Below are positions 29,475-52,117 of a stretch of 64,000 nt of DNA, piece by piece (within the stretch, counting starts at the first letter, position 1; every line of letters starts with the position of its first letter). The notes beneath the pieces were generated by a model that searched no databases, had not been told where the DNA came from, and saw only the letters and a program-made list of their open reading frames with translations. Made by a program: the position numbers and the translations under genes. The DNA comes from Nitrosopumilaceae archaeon. GTDB taxonomy: Archaea > Thermoproteota > Nitrososphaeria > Nitrososphaerales > Nitrosopumilaceae. The stretch spans positions 192,001-256,000 of the forward strand of contig OZ242376.1 in assembly GCA_965209085.1 (NCBI GenBank). Reading direction: 5' to 3'.

Positions 29475-29548
29475 AGCCTCGAGTGGGATCTGAACCCACG
29501 ACCTAACGCTTACGAAGCGTTCGCTCTACCGGACTGAGCTACCGAGGC
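29475..29548 (-). tRNA. tRNA-Thr(CGT)
   Basis: Reverse complement GCCTCGG...AACGC-TTCGTAA-GCGTT...GTGGG-TTCAGAT-CCCAC-TCGAGGC. Confidence 0.93.
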
Positions 29549-49110: not shown

Positions 49111-49497
49111 ATGGCGGATCCATATTATGTAAAATTTGAAACACCAGAGGATCTTGTAAATCCAATATACGAGGCAGTCCGGGTTTCAGCTGAGAATGGC
49201 AAAGTCAAAAAAGGCACAAACGAGGCCACAAAGGCCGTAGAGCGCGGTACTAGCAAGCTTGTTGTTATTGCAAAAGATGTGGATCCTCCAGAACTTGTAG
49301 CCCATCTGCCAATTTTATGTGAGGAGCAAAATTCCGCTTATGTCTTTGTTCCCAGTAAACAGGATTTAGGCAAAGCACTTGGCATCGGCATCGTATCTGC
49401 AGCCGCAGCCATAGTAGATGCCGCAGACGCCCAGCACATTGTCGATCAAGTGATCAACACGATATCAGAGATCAAAGGCGGCAAGACCAAAGCATGA
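49111..49497 (+). CDS. rpl7ae: 50S ribosomal protein L7Ae
   Basis: [14 protein letters not shown] and [12 protein letters not shown] motifs; GGTGA SD with a 6-nt spacer. Confidence 0.96.
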
Positions 49498-49706
49498 GCA
49501 CAGAACAGGAAGAAGTAGTCTCAGCTGAAGTAATCCAAGTAGTGGGTCGGACCGGTATTGCAGGTGAGGTAATTCAAGTCAGGGTAAAAATCATGCAGGG
49601 AGCAGATTCTGGACGCATTCTTACCCGAAACGTCAAAGGCTCAGTCCGTATGGGAGACATACTCAGACTGCGTGAGACAGAAAGAGAGGCTAAAAAGATC
49701 AAATAG
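49494..49706 (+). CDS. rps28e: 30S ribosomal protein S28e
   Basis: GRTG..GE..QV, RNVKG.VR.GDIL and ETEREA motifs. Confidence 0.96.
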
Positions 49707-49716
49707 GTGAAATGAT

Positions 49717-49917
49717 ACGAGCCTTCTAGTAAAACAGTGTACTTTCTGCGACCGTCCGGTGGCAAAAGGTTCTGGAACAATGTACGTAAAAAACGACAGC
49801 ACCATCATGTGGTTTTGCTCATCCAAATGCAAAAAAAACATGCTAGAGCTAAAACGCGATCCTCGCAAATTCAAGTGGACCAAAAAATTTGTCAAGGGCG
49901 GAATCAGGAAAAAATAG
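49717..49917 (+). CDS. rpl24e: 50S ribosomal protein L24e (apparent ACG start; not in the ORF track)
   Basis: (M)SLLVKQCTFCDRPVAKGSGTMYVKND...FCSSKC...RDPRKFKWT, in its canonical position between rps28e and ndk. Confidence 0.93.
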   Translation, partial: TSLLVKQCTFCDRPVAKGSGTMYVKNDSTIMWFCSSKCKKNMLELKRDPRKFKWTKKFVKGGIRKK

Positions 49918-49930
49918 GTGACACTTTGTC

Positions 49931-50329
49931 TTGGAACGCTCATTATTCATGGTAAAGCCTGACGGAGTGACGCGGGGTTTGGTGGGAAACATTTTAACCC
50001 GGTTTGAGCGTAAAGGGTTTCTCATACAAGAGCTGAAAATGATCCGGTTTTCAAAAAAACAGGCGGAAGAATTTTACAAAGTTCATAAAGAGAGGCCGTT
50101 TTTTGACGAGCTCGTTCAGTTTATCACATCAGGACCTGTAGTGGTTACAGTACTAGAGGGCAGAAACGCCATATCAGCTGCGCGCACCATACTTGGGTCA
50201 ACTGACTCATCAAAGGCAGAAGCTGGTTCGATAAGGGGCGATTACGGTCTTGGATTTACCGATAATATCATACACGCATCAGACTCTGCTGCAAGCTTTG
50301 AACATGAACAGGGTGTAGTGTTTCAGTGA
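49931..50329 (+). CDS. ndk: Nucleoside-diphosphate kinase
   Basis: VKPDGV, GSIRGDYG and NIIHASDS motifs. Confidence 0.96.
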   Translation: MERSLFMVKPDGVTRGLVGNILTRFERKGFLIQELKMIRFSKKQAEEFYKVHKERPFFDELVQFITSGPVVVTVLEGRNAISAARTILGSTDSSKAEAGSIRGDYGLGFTDNIIHASDSAASFEHEQGVVFQ

Positions 50330-50335
50330 TCTATA

Positions 50336-52117
50336 TTGAAAATACGTCAGCCAATCGTAGTGGTGCTCGGTCATGTGGATTCGGGAAAAACATCGCTTTT
50401 AGATAAAATCAGGGGAACAGGAGTACAGGAGCGCGAAGCTGGCGGCATTACGCAGCATATAGGGGCAAGTTTTCTTCCCGAAGAGATAATCCGTAAACGG
50501 TGCGGTTCAATGTACGATCGCCTCTCCAATTCTGCCATAAACATTCCAGGCGTGCTAGTAGTTGATACGCCAGGACACGAAGTCTTTGCAAATCTTCGGG
50601 CACGCGGCGGTTCCGCAGCTGACATTGCAATACTTGTAGTTGACGTAAACCGGGGATTTCAGCCGCAGACCAACGAGAGTCTGCAGATACTGAAAAACCG
50701 CAAGGTTCCGTTTGTACTAGCACTAAACAAGGTGGATCAGATCTCCGGATGGCGTGCCTCAAACAAACCGCAGATAGAGCAGGCGATAAAAGATCAGGAT
50801 GAATCAATACAGGCGGATTTGGATCAAAAAATCTACGACGTGGTGGGAACCCTCTCGGTTTTGGGATATCCCTCAGAAGCGTTTTACCGAGTAAAGGATT
50901 TTGCAAAAGAAGTCTCCATAGTTCCGATAAGCGCTAGAACCGGAGTTGGAATATCTGAGCTGCTAACAGTCATGGTCGGACTCACGCAGCATTATCTTGC
51001 CGAGAGGTTGGAGCAGGATCAAAAACCCGCCCGTGGAATAGTGCTGGAGGTAAACGATGAGATTGGTGTTGGACCTTCTGCCAATATCATACTCATAGAC
51101 GGCACGCTCTCCAAAAGCGACACCATACTTGTAGCAAAACGCGATCAGGTGATCGTGACAAAACCAAAGGCAATCCTTCTTCCAAAACCGCTAGATGAGA
51201 TGCGCGACCCGCGCGATAAATTCCGCCCGGTGGATATGGTGGAGGCAGCAGCCGGAATCAGACTTGCCTCATCGGATCTTGCCGGCGTGCTCCCAGGAAG
51301 CACAGTATACGTGGCAAAAAATTCATCCGAGATTGAAAAATTTACCGCCGAGATAAAAGCCGAGATGAAATCCGTCTTTTTGGATACCTCAACTGACGGC
51401 GTTTTGATAAAATGCGACACCATCGGATCACTGGAGGCGATAATCTTGATGTTGCGGCAAAAAGACATTCCCATCGCACGTGCCGACATCGGCCCGATAA
51501 ACCGGCGTGATGTAATGGAGGCACGCGCCGTAAAGGACAACGACAGGCATCTTGGGGCGATACTTGCCTTTAACGTCAAAGTGCTGCCGGATGCGCAAGA
51601 AGAGGCGGAGATCTCACACGTGAGAATATTTTCTGACGGCATCATATACCGTCTGATTGAAAGCTATGATCAGTGGGTTATGGACGATACGGCGCACGAA
51701 GAGGATGCGATATTTGCAGAGATGACTCCGATTGCAAAATTTACTTTTCTCAAAGGATACGTATTCCACAACAGCGATCCTGCCGTCTTTGGCATACGCG
51801 TGGATGCTGGAGTATTGAGGCAAAAAATCCCGTTTATGAACGAGAAGGGGCGTAAAATAGGGCAGATACACCAGCTGCAGGATAAAAGAGTGACAATTCG
51901 GACGGTGAAAAAAGGCCAGGAAGCGGCATGTTCTGTAAAAGGAATTACCGTGGGAAGACAGATTGCTGAAGATGATGTATTTTATACGCTGCCTCACTCG
52001 CACGAGGCCAAAAGACTGCTCAGAGATCTCTCGCACAAACTCTCATCAGAAGAGTTTGAAATCCTAAACCACATAGTGGAAGTTCAGCGCAAGCTGGACG
52101 CAGCATACGCCTATTAG
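50336..52117 (+). CDS. infB: Translation initiation factor IF-2/aIF5B
   Basis: GHVDSGKT, REAGGITQHIGA, DTPGHE and NKVD motifs. Confidence 0.96.
   Translation: MKIRQPIVVVLGHVDSGKTSLLDKIRGTGVQEREAGGITQHIGASFLPEEIIRKRCGSMYDRLSNSAINIPGVLVVDTPGHEVFANLRARGGSAADIAILVVDVNRGFQPQTNESLQILKNRKVPFVLALNKVDQISGWRASNKPQIEQAIKDQDESIQADLDQKIYDVVGTLSVLGYPSEAFYRVKDFAKEVSIVPISARTGVGISELLTVMVGLTQHYLAERLEQDQKPARGIVLEVNDEIGVGPSANIILIDGTLSKSDTILVAKRDQVIVTKPKAILLPKPLDEMRDPRDKFRPVDMVEAAAGIRLASSDLAGVLPGSTVYVAKNSSEIEKFTAEIKAEMKSVFLDTSTDGVLIKCDTIGSLEAIILMLRQKDIPIARADIGPINRRDVMEARAVKDNDRHLGAILAFNVKVLPDAQEEAEISHVRIFSDGIIYRLIESYDQWVMDDTAHEEDAIFAEMTPIAKFTFLKGYVFHNSDPAVFGIRVDAGVLRQKIPFMNEKGRKIGQIHQLQDKRVTIRTVKKGQEAACSVKGITVGRQIAEDDVFYTLPHSHEAKRLLRDLSHKLSSEEFEILNHIVEVQRKLDAAYAY

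Follow-up and report, generated by a model that had tools for sequence, protein, structure and literature searches.

Translation in archaea is held to begin at AUG, GUG or UUG and, to our knowledge, NCBI table 11 does not count ACG among its starts. Initiation at ACG is known from eukaryotes and viruses, for example for AAV2 VP2 and Sendai virus C'. In bacteria, infC starts at AUU and is autoregulated via IF3, an arrangement that is conserved in many bacteria and whose regulatory role has been shown. A genomic ACG can also become a conventional start codon by RNA editing to AUG, as for psbL and ndhD in plant organelles.

In the parts of one source drawn on here, archaeal initiation is described as less stringent than eukaryotic initiation, Sulfolobus aIF1 as rejecting AUU, and ACG at yeast CYC7 as reaching about 0.4-0.5% of AUG (PMC4705826). 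For Haloferax ribosome profiling, the portion of the report used here gives about 30% of putative alternative sites as near-cognate and states that these were set aside (PMC7261190). Archaeal termination-reinitiation works at distances below about 30 nt according to Huber et al. 2019 and 2023, as cited in the relevant part of PMC12548453. No report of ACG as an archaeal start was found in the open-access literature searched.

Here, we characterize the start region of rpl24e, the gene for ribosomal protein L24e, of a Nitrosopumilaceae archaeon. The gene lies in the window, by which we mean the whole stretch of 64,000 nucleotides that was analysed (contig OZ242376.1, positions 192,001 to 256,000); all coordinates refer to it unless stated otherwise. 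A previous sequence-only reading of this DNA had proposed that rpl24e starts at a near-cognate ACG codon, which might tune the level of L24e, with C-to-U editing as a more exotic alternative. At this locus the ACG stands behind a Shine-Dalgarno (SD) sequence, in a frame that has no canonical start ahead of the first cysteine pair, and it recurs in related genomes.

The rpl24e gene and its start region

The window contains the gene order rpl7ae-rps28e-rpl24e-ndk-aIF5B, which is a typical conserved archaeal neighbourhood, entirely on the + strand. Pfam was run on rpl24e alone; the four neighbours we take to be the named genes from recognising their translations. The features of the region are as follows.

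49111 to 49497, + strand: rpl7ae (L7Ae), first ribosomal gene in the cluster; ATG with AGGTGA and 6 nt upstream
49494 to 49706, + strand: rps28e (S28e), with an ATG overlapping the stop of rpl7ae (ATGA) and a stop, TAG 49704-06, overlapping the rpl24e Shine-Dalgarno sequence
49705 to 49710, + strand: Shine-Dalgarno sequence AGGTGA, complementary to the 16S rRNA 3' end; contains TGA 49708-10
49711 to 49716, + strand: spacer AATGAT, 6 nt, the same in the sister species; includes an out-of-frame ATG at 49712
49712 to 49729, + strand: mini-ORF encoding MIRAF and a stop, from the out-of-frame ATG 49712, 1 nt behind the Shine-Dalgarno sequence
49717 to 49719, + strand: ACG, proposed initiation codon, at the homologous start-codon position
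49717 to 49917, + strand: rpl24e coding sequence, 66 codons plus TAG; sole PF01246 match in the genome
49738 to 49749, + strand: first Cys pair, C8-x2-C11 (CTFC), upstream of all canonical in-frame starts
49759 to 49761, + strand: GTG, codon 15, first canonical in-frame codon of rpl24e
49780 to 49782, + strand: ATG, codon 22, second canonical in-frame codon of rpl24e
49816 to 49818 and 49828 to 49830, + strand: second Cys pair, C34 and C38, read from the rpl24e translation
49931 to 50329, + strand: ndk, downstream of rpl24e; TTG start with AGGTGA and 9 nt upstream
50336 to 52117, + strand: aIF5B, TTG start

The codons of the L24e frame read TGA(49708-10) AAT GAT ACG(49717-19) AGC CTT CTA GTA AAA CAG TGT ACT TTC TGC. 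Read directly from the sequence, the frame is closed by TGA 49708-10, and there is no ATG, GTG or TTG between this stop and C8/C11; the first GTG is codon 15, at 49759. On both points the sequence-only reading was correct. The Pfam L24e profile matches with 71.6 bits against a curated cut-off of 27, over model positions 3-55 of 66 (window 49729-49890), and the match begins at codon 5, 30 nt upstream of the GTG. The four-Cys site CxxC ... CxxxC is present in the N-terminal half of the protein (C8, C11, C34, C38), and from knowledge of the family we take these residues to be zinc ligands. A start at GTG codon 15 or ATG codon 22 would drop C8 and C11.

Since the 3' end of the 16S rRNA reads GGATCACCTCCT, the AGGTGA ahead of rpl24e pairs with it. 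The sequence-only reading had likened the 6 nt between GGTGA and the ACG to the spacing of the rpl7ae ATG, and the two sites do share one geometry, namely AGGTGA, 6 nt and ATG for rpl7ae and AGGTGA, 6 nt and ACG for rpl24e. It had also pointed to the ATG at 49712, which indeed lies 1 nt from the SD and is translated into MIRAF before a stop. The rps28e stop ends 10 nt upstream of the ACG. Predicted mRNA structure around the rpl24e start was unremarkable (z = -1.2 vs shuffles). Weak start codons are frequent in the operon, with TTG at 49931-49933 for ndk and at 50336 for aIF5B. In the sister species (locus L003), the intergenic stretch before ndk is altered and carries ATG ATG in place of the TTG of the window.

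Authenticity and copy number

The window is part of a one-contig genome of 1.69 Mb that is 98% complete (G000). Two circumstances under which the proposal would fail had been named with it, an assembly error hiding a true ATG and a second intact rpl24e. Contigs of the sequencing runs X1 (depth 150), X2 (depth 2683) and X3 (depth 9.5), which come from three studies, equal the window across at least 49300-49904 and show no differing letters or indels there; the comparison uses assembled contigs (Logan), is hence blind to rare variants, and may include the run from which the assembly was made. All three contigs retain ACG. A Pfam profile search returned one PF01246 match per genome in G000 and in the four other genomes with an ACG at this position described below (G001, G133, G345 and G351), and the complete genome of the window accordingly holds a single rpl24e.

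The homologous codon in relatives

Of 61 related genomes, 60 yielded an rpl24e locus, whose DNA we read. For comparison of start codons, 111 loci were used, made up of 30 species representatives, 80 metagenome contigs and the window, which was entered twice. The codon before the conserved Ser-Leu-Leu-Val-Lys (AGY-CTN-YTR-RTN-AAR) is ATG in 81 loci, TTG in 23, GTG in 4 and ACG in 3. These three ACG loci are the two entries of the window and that of G001, the one other species in the genus. Tabulating orthologue start codons, as the sequence-only reading had suggested, thus gave ATG, TTG or GTG in 108 of 109 other loci, with G001 as the exception. Among 30 further genomes of the order, a canonical start lies between the upstream stop and CxxC in 29, the thirtieth locus being cut by a contig end.

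The two ACG-bearing rpl24e genes of the genus differ at 30 of 201 nt, distributed over 28 codons of which 23 are changed synonymously, and the 24 nt spanning stop, SD, spacer and ACG are identical. The L24e of the window shares 97% and 95% identity with the database proteins P0001 and P0002, respectively. Both carry the genus-typical Gln7 and begin with M at the ACG position, which suggests, as far as protein records tell, close kin with a canonical start. A metagenome scan returned no further members of the genus of the window, the best match being 88% identical.

Residues 22-66 of the G001 protein are found in the databases as the 45-aa record P0083 and, because the two are equal, gene callers appear to truncate an ACG-started gene. 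Three further L24e records of 45-46 aa (P0091, P0093 and P0094) likewise begin at the internal Met22; they come from other lineages and may hide additional non-canonical or TTG starts.

Recurrence of ACG in the family

A census of the family covered 401 genomes, with completeness of at least 90% in 246, and used the pattern [codon] AGY NTN YTN RTN AAR NNN TGY NNN TTY TGY. Of the known family N-termini, this pattern picks up 32 of 36, and of the metagenome loci 79 of 80; about a tenth of genes therefore lies outside the census. Among codons with A, G or T in the first and a letter other than T in the second position, there were five matches in the 401 genomes, all of them ACG. They belong to G000 and G001 and to G133, G345 and G351 of genus g14, that is, to 3 of the 99 sampled species of g14. 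A first-letter C gave one match, CTG in G270 (locus L163, G270:C15:2025-2057), a 70% complete genome of another genus; this case is ambiguous because an in-frame GTG lies three codons upstream, inside the SD. That GTG sits directly behind the rps28e stop and could itself serve as start. No NTH codon (ATA, ATT, ATC etc.) was found at the start position by the pattern in the 401 genomes. Neither TCG, the transition product of TTG, nor GCG occurs there in the census, although TTG is common (23 of 111 loci). Unlike TCG and GCG, ACG keeps two of three pairs with a CAU anticodon. The motif ACG AGT TTT TTT RTC AAA KGT TGT was seen in seven g14 genomes, where it belongs to some other gene (loci L153-L156, L158 and L161 in G185, G423, G348, G314, G218 and G326; G297 without a locus).

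The three g14 genes come from assemblies of one or two contigs that are 97-99% complete. Each shows TAGGTGA, 6 nt and ACG; the in-frame TGA stands two codons ahead of the start position, and the frame offers no canonical codon earlier than codon 22. TAGGTGA, in which the rps28e stop overlaps the SD, is common to all five ACG genes. The spacers are ACAGGC in G133 and TTAGAT in G345 and G351, and none of them contains ATG.

Several observations point to separate origins. The gene of G345 is 4.8-6.5% away from ATG-bearing loci and 13% from that of G351, and in the nearby G014 the SD and spacer are identical to those of G345 while the codon is ATG. The loci nearest to G351 are 11.8-12.4% away and have ATG or TTG; the one nearest to G133 is 18% away and has ATG. 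In a maximum-likelihood tree of 101 loci, for which rps28e, rpl24e and ndk supplied 845 columns after removal of the start codon, the ACG label changes at least three times and well-supported branches force at least two changes, the place of G133 being unsure because it sits on a long branch. Based on this tree, ACG at the rpl24e start would have arisen at least two to three times in the family. The rps28e-rpl24e-ndk stretch of G133 (L166) reaches no more than 61% identity with its best neighbour, deviates in base composition and forms a very long branch; GTDB assigns the genome to the genus of G345 and G351 despite this divergence.

Ribosome-binding context and selection on the N-terminus

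Start regions were compared after exact duplicates and loci with less than 20 nt upstream had been dropped, leaving 103 of 119. GGTGA followed by exactly 6 nt is present in all five ACG genes and in 15 of 97 non-duplicate canonical loci. The remaining canonical loci have GGTGA at 4, 5, 7 or 8 nt (34), only the four-letter core (35) or neither (13). Related genomes are not independent samples and the contrast therefore rests on two to four events. With two to four independent events and no statistic attached, the tie of ACG to GGTGA and 6 nt is suggestive.

We also compared codons 2-21 between ACG genes. Synonymous and non-synonymous differences number 7/2 for G000-G001, 6/3 for G351-G345, 10/1 for G133-G345 and 11/2 for G000-G345. 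In the rest of rpl24e, the within-lineage pairs G000-G001 and G351-G345 show 16/3 and 12/2, similar to codons 2-21, and the distant pairs G133-G345 and G000-G345 show 21/9 and 19/9, which is less constrained than codons 2-21. The codons for C8 and C11 are kept, with changes between TGC and TGT. Judged from these substitution patterns, purifying selection acts in every ACG lineage on codons 2-21, which no start other than the ACG would include in the protein.

Alternative explanations

Four other accounts of the locus were weighed. Internal initiation at GTG codon 15 or ATG codon 22, yielding a truncated L24e, survives best among them and is still very unlikely. These are the first canonical codons of the frame, and the P0083 record has exactly the extent of a product begun at residue 22 in G001. 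Set against this, truncation would remove both C8 and C11 and, with them, the beginning of the Pfam domain from codon 5 onwards. In the window neither codon 15 nor codon 22 has an SD ahead of it, and the genes of G133, G345 and G351 lack any canonical codon ahead of codon 22. A truncated product is moreover contradicted by the apparent selection on codons 2-21.

C-to-U RNA editing, which would make AUG of ACG in the mRNA and let canonical initiation follow, strikes us as highly improbable. It has in its favour that the required change is exactly C to U, and it would also explain why ACG alone, without TCG or GCG, appears at the start site. However, a single-site editing factor would be needed in three or four separate lineages, and the strict link to GGTGA and 6 nt suggests the need of a weak codon rather than that of an edited one. 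We know of no description of mRNA C-to-U editing in archaea, and the literature searched on ACG and other non-canonical archaeal starts held nothing on it.

Equally slight is the chance that rpl24e has lost its start codon and is in decay because L24e can be dispensed with, or that the C is an assembly error. The eukaryotic counterpart of L24e is dispensable in yeast, and the rarity of ACG in the family (5/401) would suit decay. Against this account stand the intact frames, the mostly synonymous divergence over 13-25% nucleotide distance, the agreement of three assemblies and the sharing of ACG by five high-quality genomes, as well as the restriction of non-canonical codons at the site to the best near-cognate types.

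Initiation at the out-of-frame ATG 49712 with a subsequent -1 frameshift into the L24e frame is barely credible: G000 and G001 do share this ATG within an unchanged spacer, yet a start 1 nt behind the SD is too close for initiation, no slippery heptamer was seen in 49712-49729, the encoded peptide is unconserved (MIRAF in G000, MIRVY in G001) and the account is contradicted by the ACG genes of G133, G345 and G351, which have no upstream ATG.

Proposed initiation at ACG

We consider it likely that translation of rpl24e begins at ACG 49717, a near-cognate and SD-directed start. The codon is one letter from AUG, occupies the homologous position and has a ribosome-binding signal at working distance, while no canonical in-frame start lies between the upstream stop and the needed residues. 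The state is kept across species and the N-terminal codons are constrained. Near-cognate initiation as first proposed has gained from the homologous position of the codon, its presence in the sister species, its recurrence, the SD geometry and the selection on the N-terminus, all in a gene of single copy. From these observations we infer ACG to be the codon actually read.

In the proposed mechanism, AGGTGA 49705-10 would pair with the 3' end of the 16S rRNA and thereby place the ACG, 6 nt downstream, in the P site. Initiator Met-tRNA (anticodon CAU) would be used there although its middle position forms a C:A mismatch, presumably making Met the first residue. Ribosomes terminating rps28e at TAG 49704-06 probably feed the ACG by termination-reinitiation, and such a supply would let a weak codon suffice. 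The distance between this stop and the ACG at 49717 lies within the range reported for such coupling. ACG would have come from ATG by a single T-to-C transition and would have been fixed at least two times, probably three or four, in the family, only on a background of GGTGA and 6 nt.

An initiator-like tRNA(CAU) is encoded outside the window at C1:176409-176578 (- strand); it bears an intron and has A1:U72 and a GGG/CCC anticodon stem. Its apparent intron follows the anticodon, and its D region contains extra letters. ARAGORN reported only one CAU tRNA along with several odd calls, including one with a four-letter anticodon at C1:387433-387530; these fit intron-rich tRNA genes beyond its parsing. 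The tRNA-Thr(CGU) at 29475-29548 of the window (- strand) is without the G:C-rich anticodon stem of initiators and looks like an ordinary elongator.

The genome of the window was additionally screened for GGTGA followed after 4-8 nt by a near-cognate codon and an open frame of at least 60 codons, a homology-free search limited to SD-led genes. Out of the 26 candidates listed, eight picked by hand were run against Pfam, namely the longer frames and the two other ACG sites. This crude SD-led screen revealed no second convincing ACG start among the eight Pfam-tested candidates. The sole candidate with a Pfam match, aIF5A, was rejected as its domain begins behind its canonical start.

Within the family, the ACG state is rare (5/401) and seemingly reversible. 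It may be mildly deleterious, drifting in and reverting. Taking the loci together, we lean towards the broader view that ACG can act as a genuine archaeal start given a full AGGTGA exactly 6 nt upstream and ribosomes arriving from the upstream cistron, and that it has repeatedly evolved from ATG at rpl24e of ammonia-oxidising archaea.

Comparison with known systems

A single-copy ribosomal-protein gene that is under selection and has only ACG available, with the change recurring in two or more genera of a cultivable family, is strong comparative evidence for an archaeal ACG start. If the broader view is true, the aIF1/aIF2 machinery of archaea would tolerate a middle-position mismatch as eukaryotic ribosomes do, and neither the starts listed for genetic code 11 nor any prokaryotic gene caller would be complete for archaea. 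Gene finders truncate or miss genes of this kind, which leads to false reports of missing ribosomal proteins. The locus also offers a natural context for testing archaeal start stringency (AGGTGA, 6 nt, ACG and a stop 10 nt upstream), with ATG, TTG and GTG variants as controls.

Compared with archaeal GUG and UUG starts, the rpl24e site is similar in that it switches freely among ATG, TTG and GTG (81, 23 and 4 loci), whereas the mismatch of ACG is at the second position instead of the first. The arrangement resembles archaeal termination-reinitiation in the rps28e stop 10 nt before the ACG and in the ATGA overlap of rpl7ae and rps28e in the same operon; that coupling has been studied with canonical starts, and it may support an ACG as well. 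With psbL and ndhD of plant organelles the locus shares a genomic ACG at a conserved start position, but its tie to SD geometry favours a codon read directly over one that is edited. Similar to infC, rpl24e is a gene of the translation apparatus with a weak start behind a good SD and could, in principle, sense a fidelity factor, here aIF1. In contrast to the infC AUU, for which regulation is known, the rpl24e ACG is sporadic (5/401 genomes). A bolder version, if true, would make L24e output depend on the level of aIF1 or on rps28e translation, amounting to an infC-like control of stoichiometry. Common to the rpl24e site and the eukaryotic and viral ACG starts would be the reading of ACG by initiator Met-tRNA with a middle-position mismatch and a weak codon in need of a favourable context. 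Unlike those, the archaeal codon would be positioned by a Shine-Dalgarno sequence in a polycistronic operon and not by scanning and a Kozak context, and it would serve as the only start of an ordinary ribosomal protein gene instead of the start of an alternative isoform.
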